This document shows positions 4,162-56,492 of a stretch of DNA of 64,000 nt, in pieces. Under the pieces are notes generated by a model. That model saw only the letters and a program-made list of their open reading frames with translations. It searched no databases and had not been told where the DNA came from. The DNA is from a phage, in sequence record PZ179880.1. One strand, 5' to 3'. The translations under genes and the position numbers were made by a program. Position 1 is the stretch's first letter. Each line of letters starts with the position of its first letter.

Positions 4162-4742
4162 TATTCACCACAGAATTCGTTGATATTTTCCCAGTTTAAC
4201 TTATTCAAGTTTTTCTTAGGAACATTAAACACTTCAATACCCGCATTTCGCAGAATATCATCCCAGCCAGGTTTATTTTTATCGTATGTTTCGCAATAAA
4301 CCAGCTTTTTAATTCCAGATTGAGCTATCGCTTTTGCACAATCTGGGCAAGGAGAAAGTGTTACATACATAGTAGCACCTTCAATTGAAGAACCATTTCG
4401 TGCAGCAAACAAAATCGCATTTAGTTCAGCATGAATTTCATTTTTAGACGACCATTCAGAGTGAGCGCTACGGTGTTCTTTCGCCAAGACAAAACGATCA
4501 GTTGAACCAAATGATACACATTCGGGCTTATGACCTTGAATGATAGTATGTTTAGGCTTATTCAGCAACCAACCTTGCTCGGCAGCATAATCACAGCAGT
4601 TCACACCACCTGCAGGTGAACCATTATATCCAGTAGAAATAATACGTCCATTCTTTTCAATTACTGCTCCTACTTTCCAGGAGCAACATTTTGATTCTTG
4701 TGATACTAAATATGCAATTTGAAGTACTGTACTCGCTTTCAT
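4161..4742 (-). CDS. cd: dCMP deaminase
   Basis: 193 aa; zinc-binding deaminase motifs HAELNAI and SPCPDCAKAI. Confidence 0.9.
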   Translation of the reverse strand: MKASTVLQIAYLVSQESKCCSWKVGAVIEKNGRIISTGYNGSPAGGVNCCDYAAEQGWLLNKPKHTIIQGHKPECVSFGSTDRFVLAKEHRSAHSEWSSKNEIHAELNAILFAARNGSSIEGATMYVTLSPCPDCAKAIAQSGIKKLVYCETYDKNKPGWDDILRNAGIEVFNVPKKNLNKLNWENINEFCGE

Positions 4743-5077
4743 TTCATAATCACCAGATAAGCAGATTTAGCAGTTTCAACACGATAAATTTCGTGACGAA
4801 GTTTAGTTATACTTTTAATAACAGAACTAATTATATTCTGCCCATCTTTAAAGCGGTTTTTCTTATCAATAAAAATTGCGCCAACCATCTTTTTGTGAAG
4901 CTCAACCGGATACTTCGTCACAATAATAGCATCATACACAGAAGGATGAATACTATTCACCAGAGTATCATTCATTAAAGTTATTCTAATGAACTGTGCT
5001 GTTTCAGAATCAAGCGCTCTATGATCGCCAGTATCATTTTCAAGACAATTATCAAATATATCAGTTAAATTCATCAT
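4739..5077 (-). CDS. hypothetical protein (112 aa)
   Basis: ORF, ATGA overlap with cd. Confidence 0.45.
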   Translation of the reverse strand: MMNLTDIFDNCLENDTGDHRALDSETAQFIRITLMNDTLVNSIHPSVYDAIIVTKYPVELHKKMVGAIFIDKKNRFKDGQNIISSVIKSITKLRHEIYRVETAKSAYLVIMK

Positions 5078-5313
5078 AGTACGCCATACACCCTTTGTGC
5101 TTCAACTAATCCATCAAAATCCAATTTGAGATGTGTTATTTGGTCACCATCACCTGGATTCACAATTACTAATGCAGAATCGATTGGAGTTTCGGTAATA
5201 ACACGAACCGACGTTTCAGGAAATCGTTCAGAAACCTTATTTACCAATTCTTGAGCAAATAGTTTAACTTTTTCTTGGAATTCTTTAACAGTAATTGGTT
5301 TTTCGCTTAGCAT
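5074..5313 (-). CDS. hypothetical protein (79 aa)
   Basis: ORF in overlapping array. Confidence 0.45.
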   Translation of the reverse strand: MLSEKPITVKEFQEKVKLFAQELVNKVSERFPETSVRVITETPIDSALVIVNPGDGDQITHLKLDFDGLVEAQRVYGVL

Positions 5314-12736: not shown

Positions 12737-15000
12737 TACAATTTACACGCTGCGCAATCATCGGCTTTTGGAGTTTCTATTTCGTAATCATCAGTACCGG
12801 AACCATCACGAGTATTATGATAATAGAAGTTTTTAATGCCATAATACCATCCGTATAGCATGTCATCAATCATTACAGACATTGGAACCTTTCCTTTTGG
12901 AAAAATCTGCGGGTCATAATATGTATTCGCTGAAGCTGATTGACATACCCATTTCAGCATAATAGCTACCTGCGTAAGATAAGGTTTATTGCCTTTCTTA
13001 GCTAATTTCCACGTATAATCATAGAGGTCTATGTTATGCTCAATATTGGGCACGACTTGATTAAAGGAACCCTCTTTTGATTCTTTAACAGAGACTGGTC
13101 CACGTGGAGGCTCGATACCGTTTGTACTGTTAGAAACTTGGGAAGATGACTCACATGGCATAAGTGCTGATAATGTGCTATTACGGATGCCAAAGAGCTT
13201 AAGGTCTTCCCGCAGCGACGACCAGTCACAAACGTATTTTGGAGCTGCGATTTGGTCAATCTTTTTATTGTACCAGTCGATAGGTAATTCGCCTCGAGAC
13301 CAACGAGTGTCTGAATAATATTCGCAAGGTCCTTTTTCTTTGGCGAGCTTAATGGATGCTTTAATGAGCCCATACTGTAATCTCTCAAATAGTTCATGTG
13401 TTAAATCGTTAGCATCTTCATAAGAAGCAAAGTTACTTGCCAGCCAAGCTGCATAGTTCGTAACACCAACACCGAGATTACGACGCTTTTTAGCTTTTAA
13501 AGCTTCTGGAACCGGATAATCTTGATAGTCTAACAGGTTATCAAGTGCACGTACTTGAACTTCTGCTAATTCATTAATTTTATCTTGGTCTTGCCAATCG
13601 AAGTTATCCAACACAAATGCAGATAACGTGCACAATCCAATTTCAGCATCAGGACTATTCACATCATTTGTTGGAATAGCAATTTCACAACACAAGTTAC
13701 TCTGGCGAATAGGCGCCTTTTCACGAATAAACGGAGTATAGTTATTCGTATTATCAATGAACTGCACATAAATCCTTGCTGTTCCTGATCGTTCAGTCAT
13801 GAGTAATTCAAATAGTTCACGGGCTTTAATACGCTTTTTGCGAATATTAGGGTCTTTTTCTGCTGCTTCGTATAATTCGCAGAAACGGTCTTGGTCTTTA
13901 AAATAAGAATAATAAAGCTCACCACCCATTTCATGCGGACTGAACAAAGTAATGTAATCGTTCTTTCCAAAACGTTCCATCATCAAATCATTCAACTGGA
14001 CGCCATAATCCATATGACGGATACGGTTTTCTTCTACACCTTTGTTATTTTTCAAAACGAGAAGATTTTCAACTTCCAAATGCCAAATAGGATAATAAGC
14101 AGTAGCAGCGCCGCCACGAATTCCGCCCTGTGAACATGATTTAACAGCAGTCTGAAAATGTTTCCAAAAAGGAATAACACCAGTATGACGCACTTCACCC
14201 ATGCCAATCTTAGAACCTTCGGCACGAATCATACCAACGTTAATACCAATTCCAGCACGTTTGGAGATATATTCAACAATTGAAGCAGAAGCCTTATTAA
14301 TAGACTTTAATGAATCACCTGCCTCAATAACAACGCATGAACTAAACTGCCGAGTTGGAGTACGGCAACCAGCCATAATAGGAGTTGGTAATGAAATCTG
14401 TCGAGTAGATACTGCTTCATAAAAACGAATAACATGTTTTAATCTATCAACAGGTTCATCTTGATGCAATGCCATTCCAATAGTCATAAATGCAAACTGA
14501 GGAGTTTCATAAATTTGACCAGTGGTTTTATCTTTAACGAGATATTTTTCTTTTAATTGCATCGCCCCGGAATAAGTAAATTCCATATCCCGCTCATGCT
14601 TAATTTTTGATTCTAAAAATGTAATTTCTTCTGCTGAATATTTTGACAACAATTCAGGGTCATATTTACCTTCATTTACGCAGTAAGAAATATGGTCAAT
14701 AAATGAACGTGGTTCATACTGCCCATAAACATGCTTACGAAGAGCGAACATTAAACAGCGCGCAGCTACGTATTGATAATCAGGCTCTTCAACTGAAATA
14801 GAATTCGCAGCAGCCTTAATGACAATAGTCTGAATGTCATCAGTTGTCATTCCATCACGGAGATATGATTTAATATTTTCATATAATTCATAAGGATCTA
14901 CAGATGTTCCTTCAGCTGCCCAAGATAAAACTTTAATAATTTTTTGCGGGTCAAAGCTCTGAGAAACACCACTACTTTTGATAACATTAATTAATTGCAT
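12736..15000 (-). CDS. nrdA: ribonucleotide reductase large subunit
   Basis: 754 aa; ATP-cone N-terminus and class I RNR catalytic motifs. Confidence 0.95.
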   Translation of the reverse strand: MQLINVIKSSGVSQSFDPQKIIKVLSWAAEGTSVDPYELYENIKSYLRDGMTTDDIQTIVIKAAANSISVEEPDYQYVAARCLMFALRKHVYGQYEPRSFIDHISYCVNEGKYDPELLSKYSAEEITFLESKIKHERDMEFTYSGAMQLKEKYLVKDKTTGQIYETPQFAFMTIGMALHQDEPVDRLKHVIRFYEAVSTRQISLPTPIMAGCRTPTRQFSSCVVIEAGDSLKSINKASASIVEYISKRAGIGINVGMIRAEGSKIGMGEVRHTGVIPFWKHFQTAVKSCSQGGIRGGAATAYYPIWHLEVENLLVLKNNKGVEENRIRHMDYGVQLNDLMMERFGKNDYITLFSPHEMGGELYYSYFKDQDRFCELYEAAEKDPNIRKKRIKARELFELLMTERSGTARIYVQFIDNTNNYTPFIREKAPIRQSNLCCEIAIPTNDVNSPDAEIGLCTLSAFVLDNFDWQDQDKINELAEVQVRALDNLLDYQDYPVPEALKAKKRRNLGVGVTNYAAWLASNFASYEDANDLTHELFERLQYGLIKASIKLAKEKGPCEYYSDTRWSRGELPIDWYNKKIDQIAAPKYVCDWSSLREDLKLFGIRNSTLSALMPCESSSQVSNSTNGIEPPRGPVSVKESKEGSFNQVVPNIEHNIDLYDYTWKLAKKGNKPYLTQVAIMLKWVCQSASANTYYDPQIFPKGKVPMSVMIDDMLYGWYYGIKNFYYHNTRDGSGTDDYEIETPKADDCAACKL

Positions 15001-15317
15001 AAGTCCTCAACTTGAAAATCGTCTTTAAACAATCGGTTAACTATATGAGCTATTATATCACCATGACACGGCTTTGGTTTACATGTGCATCCTAGCCTCA
15101 TTCCACGTAAAGGCTCTAAATGTGCTTTAGTTATTTCTCCGGATTTAATTCGACGTATAAAATCTTTTTTGAATAATTCAATGGCAGCCTCCCGGCTGCC
15201 AGCATCTTTACCGACGTAATTTCCCCAAAATGTACCACGGTGAATATTAACATCAAAGTCGGATTTATATTTATTCACTACCTGGCATAGACGGCCCGCG
15301 CGGTGATAATTCGTCAT
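14991..15317 (-). CDS. hypothetical protein (nrdA.1-like position)
   Basis: 108-aa ORF between td and nrdA. Confidence 0.5.
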
Positions 15318-54505: not shown

Positions 54506-54709
54506 TCATGATTTATCCCCATAGATGTCTCTCATCAATTTAAGCGCTGAGCGTTCTAATTTCTTTTCTTTCTCAACGCTAATCATTGATTTCATCCATT
54601 CTTCTGATTCGTTCTGCATTTCTTTATTTGCTTGTTCAACCCAACCATCGTCAAGGTACATTGAGTTTGGTCTATTGAACCATTCAAGTATTTTCTTCAG
54701 AACTTTCAT
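54506..54709 (-). CDS. hypothetical protein (67 aa)
   Basis: ORF. Confidence 0.4.
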
Positions 54710-55181
54710 TTGTTTTACCTAAAACAACAGTAGGAGCATCGTCAAATTCATGAATTTTTAGCAAATTTGGATGTAAACTATTCCATACAGAAGAAATAAA
54801 ATATGATAAAGCATCTTCACTCGCAATTATAAATTTGTTTCCTTTATCTATTTTCCAGTTATATAATGAATCGTACGAATAGAAAGATAAAGGTTTATCA
54901 TTATATTGTTCTGCGCTAACATTAATGTATTCGGATTTAGTAAATGCTTCAATTGCTCTAAATGGAATATTTGGTACAGTTTCAATAATTCCGATCTTTT
55001 TAAGTTTTATTTCAGCATCTTCTGGAACTGGCATTGAAACGAAATTTTCTACGAGATACATTGGGTCACAATAACCCTTATCAATCATTACTGCTACGGT
55101 AATTGGAACATCTTTAGCAAATGACATGCTATTACTGCTAATATACATTTCAAACAAAATCGCTTCCATAATTTTCCTCAA
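54684..55181 (-). CDS. hypothetical protein (165 aa)
   Basis: ORF. Confidence 0.45.
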
Positions 55182-55561
55182 TCACAAGATGTAGATGAAC
55201 AACTAGAATCACAAGAACTTCCACATGAATCGCCCGTCCACACATGAACAGGAACATTAGTATCATATGAATCAGAACTAGACTGTGTATTCTGCGTATT
55301 AGATGATGTAGGTGTTGACCAACGCCAAGGATTTTTATAATATTCCTGGGCTTCTTCATAAGTCATAGTAACTGCTTCTACTGTTCCATCTCCCATATAA
55401 ACATATTCAACTACAGTTAAAGGAAGGTAGTCATTTGAAATAGGAACTACACCTTCTCCGGGAGTTGTAGAGAAAAAATCCGTAAAGAAACTTTTAAACC
55501 AATTAAAGATAAACATTACAAAAAGCCTCTTTGAAATTCGACTCTTTGAAATCCACCCCAA
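55178..55561 (-). CDS. hypothetical protein with hydrophobic N-terminus and Ser/Cys-rich C-terminal tail
   Basis: 127 aa; C-terminus ...[20 protein letters not shown]. Confidence 0.45.
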
Positions 55562-55728
55562 TCAGTGTATCGCATTTCAGCATTGAACTCGACTGAACCA
55601 TCTGCATGCATCATGAATGAATGCGTGACGATATCACAATCCCAGCTTTTCATACCCCATTTATCAGAGATAGCTTTATCAAGAACCTTCTGGAGGTCTT
55701 CATTTGGTTTAATCCAGCGATTTAACAT
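55516..55728 (-). CDS. hypothetical protein (70 aa)
   Basis: ORF. Confidence 0.4.
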   Translation of the reverse strand: MLNRWIKPNEDLQKVLDKAISDKWGMKSWDCDIVTHSFMMHADGSVEFNAEMRYTDWGGFQRVEFQRGFL

Positions 55729-55749: not shown

Positions 55750-55784
55750 ATTTTATTATACCATACTCATTTTGGAAAGTAAAC
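55750..55784 (-). promoter_or_regulatory. early promoter
   Basis: GTTTAC and TGGTATAAT on minus strand, just downstream of soc terminator. Confidence 0.4.
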
Positions 55785-55794
55785 CGGTAAAATG

Positions 55795-55818
55795 AAAAAA
55801 GGACTCCCGAAGGAGTCC
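55795..55818 (-). terminator. intrinsic terminator downstream of soc
   Basis: Same GGACUCC-UUCG-GGAGUCC hairpin + U6. Confidence 0.65.
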
Positions 55819-55824
55819 TTGAAT

Positions 55825-56070
55825 TTATTCACCAGTTACTTTCCACAAATCTTCGTTTGCAGTAATCCATTCAGTACGTTGATTTTCTTCATATACTGTA
55901 GAATATGCTGCTTTTTCTGAAGGGAATATCTGATAATGAGCGCCAGAAATTTTGTGAACGTCAGAATAAAGAGGGAAAGCTACAGAAATTTCCTTTCCTT
56001 CAATTTTCTTATTTCCATCTAATTTTTGCTCAAATGTTTTAATATTAACATAACCGCGAGTACTAGCCAT
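55825..56070 (-). CDS. soc: small outer capsid protein Soc
   Basis: 81 aa; late promoter TATAAATA 30 nt upstream; terminator downstream. Confidence 0.85.
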   Translation of the reverse strand: MASTRGYVNIKTFEQKLDGNKKIEGKEISVAFPLYSDVHKISGAHYQIFPSEKAAYSTVYEENQRTEWITANEDLWKVTGE

Positions 56071-56085
56071 GTAATTCTCCTTTAT

Positions 56086-56295
56086 TTAAATTACATGACT
56101 ATTTATAATAAATTCTTGTGGAACGTTAAAATACCCAATTTTAGTTAATATAACAACATCACCGTTAATAATTACCGGAGAATAATCGGCTGGAGCATTA
56201 AACTTCCAATGAGCTCTAATATTATATCCATCAGAACCAAATGCTCAACTAGCCGGTCTCCCGGCTTTTTGCCATGCATAAAAATCAAATTTCAT
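56086..56295 (-). pseudogene. 70-codon frame interrupted by in-frame TGA (codon 17)
   Basis: ATG at 56293-56295 overlaps upstream stop (ATGA); TGA at 56245-56247; frame continues 52 codons to TAA at 56086-56088. Confidence 0.4.
56100..56107 (-). promoter_or_regulatory. late promoter TATAAATA for soc
   Basis: Reverse complement is TATAAATA, 30 nt upstream of soc ATG. Confidence 0.65.
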
Positions 56296-56492
56296 TTTGA
56301 ATGCTCTATAATTAATTTTAAGGCTTCTTCATGCACCTTACCTAATTGTATATGTCCAGTTTTAATTGTGTAAGCTTTGTGGAGCTGATTAGATAGGAGC
56401 TCGTATGTGAGCTCCTTGTCATAATTTTTAAATAGCTGGTCAATACGTTTCTTGTGGGCTTTCTTAAGTTGACGTTTATTTAAACGAGCCAT
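56292..56492 (-). CDS. hypothetical basic protein (66 aa)
   Basis: ORF abutting gene 56 stop. Confidence 0.45.
   Translation of the reverse strand: MARLNKRQLKKAHKKRIDQLFKNYDKELTYELLSNQLHKAYTIKTGHIQLGKVHEEALKLIIEHSK

Follow-up and report, generated by a model that had tools for sequence, protein, structure and literature searches.

A twin Ser-Cys-Asp tail on the T4 early protein Mrh.1 appears to be an autonomous module kept in three groups of phages

Phage T4 gene mrh.1 (T4p027, NP_049642.1, UniProt P20706) is already known and catalogued, both under its T4 name and through the families Pfam DUF7206 and PHROG 2031, and it is listed as being of unknown function. A full-text literature search for mrh.1, DUF7206 and the neighbour genes found supplementary tables only, and no discussion in a main text. 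The subject here is the orthologue of this gene in a stretch of 64,000 nucleotides of phage DNA (sequence record PZ179880.1; the whole stretch is called the window below), where the coding sequence occupies 55178..55516 on the minus strand (112 amino acids plus stop), as supported by translation of the open reading frame (ORF), the T4 annotation, Pfam DUF7206 and PHROG 2031. The protein closes with a tail of twin Ser-Cys-Asp units, and sequence comparison suggests that this tail is an autonomous module, kept at the amino-acid level in three phage groups and probably the working part of Mrh.1. As far as could be checked, neither the occurrence of the twin-Cys tail across lineages nor the modular anatomy of the protein has been described.

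For two parts of Mrh.1, analogies may be drawn with well-known proteins. The C-terminal tail of E. coli NrdA (Cys754/Cys759) and the C-terminal Cys pair of MerA are what we take to be flexible dithiol swinging arms. They would be analogous to the tail of Mrh.1 in that a pair of cysteines, separated by a few residues only, stands at the extreme end of a disordered chain of Ser, Gly and acidic residues, and the two conserved cysteines of Mrh.1 do lie in an extreme C-terminus predicted to be disordered, as in such swinging-arm or metal-binding tails. The NrdA and MerA tails, however, pass electrons or metal to the active site of the same large enzyme, whereas Mrh.1 is without a catalytic domain. 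At the other end of the protein, comparison may be made with MinD, FtsA and MreB, which presumably carry a short basic/aromatic amphipathic membrane-targeting helix at a protein terminus. The N-terminal helix of Mrh.1 would be alike in its terminal position and in its hydrophobic moment (0.41-0.73 in most family members, against 0.51-0.57 in the controls MreB and FtsA and 0.27 in MinD), but in its T4-type form it is more hydrophobic and less basic.

In the window protein the tail spans residues 93-112 (55181..55240, minus strand). An earlier reading of the same letters, the initial annotation, had described a Ser/Thr/Gln-rich linker and a Ser/Cys tail, both of which are present in the translation; the five tail cysteines that it reported come down to four on counting (Cys98, Cys102, Cys106 and Cys111, of 112 residues), all of them encoded by TGT. 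Homologues were collected with a word-indexed search and then an exhaustive hidden Markov model (HMM) search of 1.84 billion representative proteins, the latter returning only 28 proteins at E <= 0.001. Two alignments were used, A1 of the closer homologues and A2 of 29 full-length members. The family spans genera of the Tevenvirinae, with identity down to about 30%, and every member that was traced to a genome or contig sits in a T4-like phage.

Across this divergence the end of the protein hardly changes. The penultimate residue is Cys in all 29 members and the last residue is Asp in 28 (Asn in the remaining one), while in 29 of 29 there is another Cys, at a distance of 6-12 residues from the C-terminus. 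C111 is thus invariant, D112 and the Cys-Asp pair further in are almost so, and these are the most constant positions in the whole family. The core of the tail, which is otherwise rich in Ser, Tyr and Asp, can be written ...S-C-D-(4-9 Ser/Gly)-S-C-D-COOH. Two cysteines are therefore conserved family-wide and the set of four is restricted to the T4 lineage, with a spacing of C-x3-C-x3-C-x4-C here as opposed to C-x5-10-C in the remaining family; the two extra cysteines may stand at positions that are Tyr in relatives, although this correspondence is ambiguous in the alignment. Such spacings are without the two CxxC/CxxH knuckles of a zinc ribbon or knuckle, and no match to a Pfam zinc domain was obtained. 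Nor is a metallothionein-like density reached, the window protein having four cysteines among its 112 residues and the members outside the T4 lineage two to three. Among T4-like phages the codons of the tail interchange synonymously (TGT with TGC, GAT with GAC, and TCN with AGY for serine) while the residues are kept, and selection therefore acts on the peptide. The initial annotation had named homologues that lack the Cys-rich tail as what would refute its reading; every homologue keeps the tail, and the reading is not refuted on this count.

The same tail is carried by proteins of two other phage groups. A profile of the 42 C-terminal residues led to P0035 and to the family of phage 7-11: it matched a 71-aa protein with a different N-terminus, the relatives of which are proteins of 79-80 aa in Salmonella phage 7-11 and its allies (Grimontviridae). 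These 7-11-type proteins have a knuckle-like N-terminus (CxxC...H...C), and their genes have early genes and genes of DNA metabolism as neighbours. The phage 7-11 protein AEK81956.1 ends in SSSDSYSSCDSSSSFSGSCD, which agrees at 20 of 20 positions with the end of Mrh.1 from Kanagawavirus (in Edwardsiella phage PEi20 and Klebsiella phage KLB31), and in 200,000 composition-preserving shuffles 20 identical terminal residues never occurred, the best shuffle giving 7. At the DNA level only 35 of 63 nucleotides of the tail are identical between PEi20 and 7-11, with many TCN-to-AGY serine switches. Recent horizontal transfer of DNA, considered as a source of the common tail, was ruled out by this nucleotide identity together with the changes of serine codon family.

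A degenerate-codon scan of viral contigs then added the Vequintavirinae, where the tail occurs in Klebsiella phage BIS47 (BIS47_14, ARB12518.1), in a protein of Escherichia phage 4MG, in Salmonella phage PVP-SE1 (gp034, YP_004893841.1, with the variant ending ...SYSSGSCDSGSSSGGCD) and in related contigs. A scan of the viral contigs that looked for the tail in its Dhakavirus-type form yielded three T4-like contigs only, all of them already known. Both the Vequintavirinae and the 7-11 proteins have their last 17-20 residues identical to those of Kanagawavirus Mrh.1, and with hhalign only the last 20 columns align (probability 97%, E 6e-11). The Vequintavirinae proteins also open with a similar amphipathic motif, RKFFKWLLxLF. 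In contrast to Mrh.1, the proteins of both groups are without the PGEG/YMGDG core, and their gene neighbourhoods differ from that of mrh.1. Pfam DUF7206 gives them 15.7-20 bits, below its cut-off of 25.6, over the tail half only, and BLASTP of P0023 against P0037 gave no match owing to low-complexity masking. What the Tevenvirinae, the Vequintavirinae and the 7-11-like phages have in common is that their hosts are Enterobacterales. From these comparisons it appears quite probable that the tail is a functional and specifically recognised module.

Some further genes were seen around the tail-bearing genes of the Vequintavirinae. In PVP-SE1 the tail-bearing gene is followed by gp035 (L043 3016-3240), which encodes a small Cys-rich protein (CPNGH...CAKCG), and in BIS47 by BIS47_15 (L044 3415-3633), which encodes a small two-helix membrane protein, while the gene upstream is conserved between the two phages (MxxxERTGxKFVEMYEA...). 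It is possible that these neighbours are functional partners of the tail protein. In the window itself, a 108-aa ORF at 14991-15317 (minus strand) also ends in Cys-Asn; as it lacks a Ser-rich tail and does not resemble Mrh.1, the shared ending is probably coincidental.

The assignment of the window gene itself leaves little doubt, and its identity as mrh.1, its ATG start and its non-membrane topology, taken jointly, are very probably correct. The segment belongs to a Tequatrovirus (a T4-like phage), with soc, mrh, srh, modB, modA, gene 56 and dam among the neighbouring ORFs, and the order soc - mrh.2 - mrh.1 - mrh is that of T4, which also shares srh, modB and modA as neighbours. Although the initial annotation did not recognise the protein from T4, it is T4 Mrh.1: 110 of 112 residues are identical, the linker reading TPTSS (one Thr fewer) where T4 has TPTTSS, and WTGDS replacing the WAGDS of T4 (Ala-to-Thr). 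The slot between mrh.2 and mrh, the stop/start overlap and the four-Cys tail are all the same in T4. DUF7206 matches with 98.9 bits, residues 3-112 covering profile positions 1-107 of 107, and PHROG 2031 with 116 bits (E 1.5e-33); the family invariants, that is, the YxYMGDG hairpin and the C-terminal C-D, are all present. As a DNA query, the 384 bp of the open frame have 100% identity to at least 22 GenBank records of Tequatrovirus phages and at least 90% identity to 502. The Pfam and PHROG scores, the roughly 500 records and the synonymous codon change speak for a genuine coding gene with the tail under selection.

The initial annotation had worked with the whole open frame, 55178..55561, which is present exactly as quoted, with 127 codons counted from a TTG at 55561, and which lies on the minus strand. 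The true start of mrh.1 is nevertheless almost certainly the ATG at 55516, judging from the sequence context and the existing annotations. This ATG overlaps the stop codon of the upstream neighbour mrh.2 (55516..55728, minus strand, 70 aa) as TAATG; a Shine-Dalgarno-like AGAGG (55526..55530, minus strand) stands 9 nt upstream of it; it is the annotated start in both T4 and phage NBG2; and the frame further upstream is not conserved. That 15-codon extension (55517..55561, minus strand) falls within the 3' end of mrh.2, which is read in a different frame, and is probably untranslated. It is interrupted or different in three of the loci compared (L007, L008 and L010), and distant relatives read only 'TRFPM' there, while the N-termini of all distant homologues align to the ATG at 55516 and GAGG/AGGA elements are found at the mrh.2/mrh.1 junction in relatives as well. 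With this start the product has 112 aa, a calculated mass of 12.5 kDa and a pI of about 4.05. The 14-residue hydrophobic beginning that had been described is thus present as a stretch, but three of its residues lie upstream of the ATG and are probably not translated.

From its sequence and structure models, Mrh.1 is predicted to be a soluble, largely disordered protein in which three or four short conserved modules can be told apart. It begins with the N-terminal amphipathic helix (residues 1-15; 55472..55516, minus strand), with the motif M-[IF]-x-[WF]-[LI]-K-x-[LF]-F, which is kept in the alignment and modelled as a helix at residues 3-15 by AlphaFold2; the hydrophobic stretch amounts to an amphipathic helix of 9-15 residues with Lys and Asp inside, neither long nor apolar enough for a membrane span. 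It is followed by the motif PGEGVVPI (residues 19-26; 55439..55462, minus strand), invariant in A1 and with P19 and P25 nearly invariant family-wide. Residues 34-61 (55334..55417, minus strand) form a beta-hairpin and a short helix, the sole confidently modelled part, with strands at 34-40 and 46-52, a helix at 53-61 and a predicted local distance difference test (pLDDT) score of about 77-85; in the hairpin motif YxYMGDG(M/T)xEEV, Y40, G42, G44 and E47 are invariant in the 29 sequences. The Ser/Thr/Gln/Asn-rich linker (residues 62-92; 55241..55333, minus strand) is specific to the T4 lineage and predicted to be disordered, with pLDDT below 50, and the tail has pLDDT of about 45-51 in the window model and about 40-55 over both AlphaFold2 models. 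These models, of the window protein and of a long-form relative, are non-globular (predicted template modelling scores of 0.26 and 0.28, respectively). Searches for structural relatives returned little: when PDB sequences were searched with a profile, the one match was to a capsid protein and spurious (E 0.0026), and a Foldseek comparison of the model with the PDB found no fold below E 1.8, as one would expect of a mostly disordered model. For Mrh.1 and Mrh.2, PADLOC had no match at E <= 1, although this excludes little, as PADLOC covers defence and not anti-defence systems.

Expression signals place mrh.1 in a unit with mrh.2. An early-type sigma-70 promoter-like site (TTTACT-17-TATAAT with TG upstream; 55755..55783, minus strand) precedes mrh.2-mrh.1; it has 10 of 12 consensus matches in a consensus scan, and NBG2 has a promoter annotated at the same place. 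Ahead of it, a terminator scan detected the stem-loop of the soc terminator (55799..55820, minus strand; 9 bp, with 5 G-C pairs, then a T-run), which is likewise annotated in NBG2 and divides the late gene soc from the early mrh.2-mrh.1 unit. The hairpin, AAGGACTCC-TTCG-GGAGTCCTT, is a perfect palindrome and was called on both strands, with a proper T-run on the minus strand only. Among the 24 loci with an intact mrh.1, the mrh.2 stop and the mrh.1 start overlap by 1 or 4 nt in 19 and are separated by a gap in none, and because of these overlaps the two genes are probably translationally coupled. The T4 transcript belongs to the early class (PMC9697503, Table S2), and mrh.1 is a non-structural early gene, whose early promoter lies a short way past the soc terminator. 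When translation of T4 genes was knocked down by CRISPRi-ART, mrh.1 scored as 'Semi-Fit' (0.79, statistic 0.069, 5 guides), while mrh.2, mrh, srh and soc were all Not Fit, and the authors of this genome-wide screen named mrh.1 among five Semi-Fit genes of purely unknown function (PMC11879866).

Several readings of such a protein can be weighed against these data. That the tail is of low complexity and neutral, or the ORF non-functional, might be thought from the lack of Mrh.1 protein in T4 proteomics and from the few disrupted alleles described below; yet the tail stays invariant in a family whose identity falls to about 30%, its codons turn over synonymously, two further phage groups share it, the knock-down is Semi-Fit and the sizes of the tryptic peptides account for the absence from mass spectrometry, so that the conservation data have already largely refuted this reading and it deserves next to no credence. 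The initial annotation also entertained a modified-peptide precursor, that is, a ribosomally synthesized and post-translationally modified peptide (RiPP) of lanthipeptide, thiazole/oxazole or thioether type, whose core peptide would be the Ser/Cys tail. The Ser/Cys/Asp-rich C-terminus does resemble core peptides in composition, and residues 94-108 weakly match the NCBIfam model TIGR04363 (FxLD lanthipeptide precursor, E 0.034), but at 14.2 bits against a cut-off of 30. No ORF of at least 120 aa with a CxxxCxxC radical-SAM motif occurs in the 64-kb window, and no dehydratase, cyclase, YcaO, peptidase or exporter lies near the tail-bearing loci of the three lineages (T4-like, 7-11-like, and Vequintavirinae as represented by PVP-SE1 and BIS47), where the neighbouring genes encode small proteins of other kinds. 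Conserved structured modules are, moreover, atypical of leader peptides, and we know of no RiPP maturation enzymes in the well-studied T4 gene set; a RiPP origin is exceedingly unlikely. Very unlikely, too, is the membrane-tethered protein first proposed, in which an N-terminal transmembrane segment or signal anchor would hold the protein with its Cys tail outside the cytoplasm, forming disulfides. With the TTG extension the N-terminus is superficially like a signal anchor, and the Vequintavirinae counterparts, which start with MNKIRKFFKWLLGLFSTTTVVSIG, are somewhat signal-like. The extension, however, is not conserved. Over 19-residue windows the Kyte-Doolittle mean peaks at 0.84 when the protein is read from the ATG, at 1.19 with the extension and at 0.93 across the family, all below the customary threshold of about 1.6 for a membrane span, so that by this measure a membrane-crossing segment is absent from every family member. 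Ahead of K/T-PGEG, most of the T4-like proteins offer no more than the nine or so residues of MIxWLKxLF; inspected by eye, these N-termini (MIxWLKxLFK-TPGEG) show neither a Sec signal arrangement nor a signal-peptidase-like site, while the Vequintavirinae versions are slightly more signal-like.

The serious choice lies between recognition and chemistry. Of the roles first suggested for the tail, one related to metal or disulfides remains the most natural chemical reading, and by analogy with known dithiol tails it is plausible, if still doubtful, that thiol or metal chemistry is involved rather than plain docking. In plain docking the tail would be a short linear motif, or decoy, for a host protease or adaptor, a chaperone or a defence sensor, perhaps in the sigma-32/heat-shock circuit addressed by the neighbours mrh and srh, and the cysteines would be recognition residues only. 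This has a lesser but real chance of being right, given that Ser, Phe and Gly residues that are no ligands are kept residue for residue in three unrelated phage groups despite codon turnover, that the tail is predicted to be disordered, that the gene lies within the T4 early host-takeover cluster and that Cys may be interchangeable with Tyr at two T4-lineage positions, if the ambiguous alignment is right there. On the other hand, no positions in the family vary less than the two Cys-Asp pairs, and the T4 lineage gained cysteines rather than losing them.

The best overall explanation, put forward tentatively, is that Mrh.1 is an early, disordered protein of host takeover, whose tail docks on a conserved host factor by way of two thiols. 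On this explanation mrh.1 would be translated in tandem with mrh.2 from the early promoter, giving a small, acidic, mostly disordered cytoplasmic protein of short conserved modules. Its N-terminal helix may attach it to the surface of the inner membrane or settle into a partner's hydrophobic groove; the second module would consist of the PGEG-VPI motif, followed by the YxYMGDG hairpin and helix; and the flexible Ser-rich tail, with its two Ser-Cys-Asp units, the last at the very C-terminus, would be the effector end. The tail would act as a sequence-specific short linear peptide, docking on a factor that is conserved in Enterobacterales hosts. Its chemistry could be soft-metal chelation at a Cys2Asp2-type site, possibly shared with the partner, as the two Cys-Asp pairs and the free C-terminal carboxylate could give S2O2-type ligands, or it could be that of a dithiol/disulfide swinging arm. 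A metal site shared with Mrh.2 was also considered and dropped, since only one His of that protein (in HSFMMH) is broadly conserved and its Cys31 is not. A bolder form is rather unlikely on present sequence evidence, namely that ...SYDSGSSCDSGSSxSCD-COOH is a portable effector that captures or poisons one conserved host factor by thiol chemistry; equally speculative are the particular chemistries that may be assigned to it, metal or Fe-S hijacking or dithiol exchange with thioredoxin or glutaredoxin, with T4 having a reinforced four-Cys version.

A number of observations weigh against the explanation by thiol-mediated docking. The exact conservation of Ser, Phe and Gly across phage families favours recognition of the whole peptide over two metal ligands, and two cysteines with a variable gap of 5-10 residues make no canonical zinc or Fe-S motif. 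Overall confidence in the models is low, with mean pLDDT of 59.5 and 65.2. Disrupted alleles of mrh.1 occur (P0006 of phage ERS-1, L011 and P0005), which means that the gene is dispensable at least sometimes or that there are sequencing or annotation errors. The knock-down score is borderline, and the mrh.1 guides also cover the 3' end of mrh.2 (PMC11879866). Finally, and weakly, the T4 protein was undetected by liquid chromatography-mass spectrometry (PMC9697503, Table S2). This last point carries little weight because trypsin would cut Mrh.1 into fragments of 8, 53, 4 and 47-48 residues, sizes unlike those that the method normally identifies.

Within the Tevenvirinae the family comes in more than one length. 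Long-form members (Dhakavirus, the Kanagawavirus type of PEi20, and T4-like phages of Klebsiella and Edwardsiella) share with the window protein the N-terminal motif, PGEG-VPI, the YxYMGDG hairpin and the twin S-C-D end, as well as synteny with mrh.2; distant T4-like contigs keep the order soc, mrh.2, mrh.1, and have mrh and the mod genes farther along on the downstream side. The long forms differ in having two cysteines only, against four in the T4 lineage, and in carrying a helical, basic segment (PLNSxxLKxxLxxRR) and a hydrophobic patch (DTTPIVxAAAVSSW) where the T4-type form of 112-113 aa has the Ser/Thr/Gln linker instead. A longer mrh.1 allele also exists in Tequatrovirus, in P0003 (164 aa; Escherichia phage 235Ecol030PP and 16 other cluster members) and in Shigella phage Sf22 (H105). 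It joins a T4-type N-terminal half and a four-Cys tail with a Dhakavirus-type insertion of basic helix and hydrophobic patch, which suggests either that different genera have recombined or that the T4 lineage has undergone a deletion.

Other entries are damaged or doubtful. The disrupted or truncated alleles are P0006, with a frameshift after about residue 60, L011 2074-2181, with an early frameshift in an IMG/VR contig, and P0005 and P0004; in phage Sa45lw, an mrh.1 annotation of 70 aa begins at an internal Met. P0009, from an ENA metagenome contig of 647 bp, has 110 foreign-looking residues fused in frame to the upstream region and the first 30 or so codons of mrh.1. Its N-terminal part was likened by eye to what we take to be a mammalian repeat, and the entry is almost certainly an assembly chimera.

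Around mrh.1, the downstream gene mrh (54684..55169, minus strand, 161 aa from ATG) starts 8 nt past the mrh.1 stop and has the ribosome-binding site GAGGAAAA. Mrh.2 homologues in three of the loci (L003-L005) match Pfam Phage_T4_Y01J. Mrh.2 begins MLNRWIKPN, and Srh (54506-54709, minus strand) contains ILEWFNRPN; the two proteins thus have in common a W-[IF]-x-[KR]-P-N motif near the N-terminus, which is loosely like the W-L-K motif of Mrh.1. At another locus (L026), the ORF that precedes the mrh.1 homologue has ...NPLPWIKNW at its start, resembling the N-terminus of the family member P0026. Beyond soc, the window at 56070-56492 (to be compared with 4607-5281 of the T4 locus, L001) has no segF homing-endonuclease gene, which T4 has between soc and gene 56; its site holds one or two small ORFs, such as 56292..56492 (minus strand, 66 aa), as in NBG2.

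For an uncharacterised early gene of T4, this analysis adds a defined start, a modular anatomy and a conserved C-terminal peptide of 20 residues. Conservation of amino acids with codon turnover across three lineages of lytic phages usually marks direct contact with a conserved host component, and the tail could thus reveal a host vulnerability common to E. coli, Salmonella and Klebsiella. It is a solid lead rather than a surprising new system, and through its tail a widespread phage protein module is now experimentally tractable.

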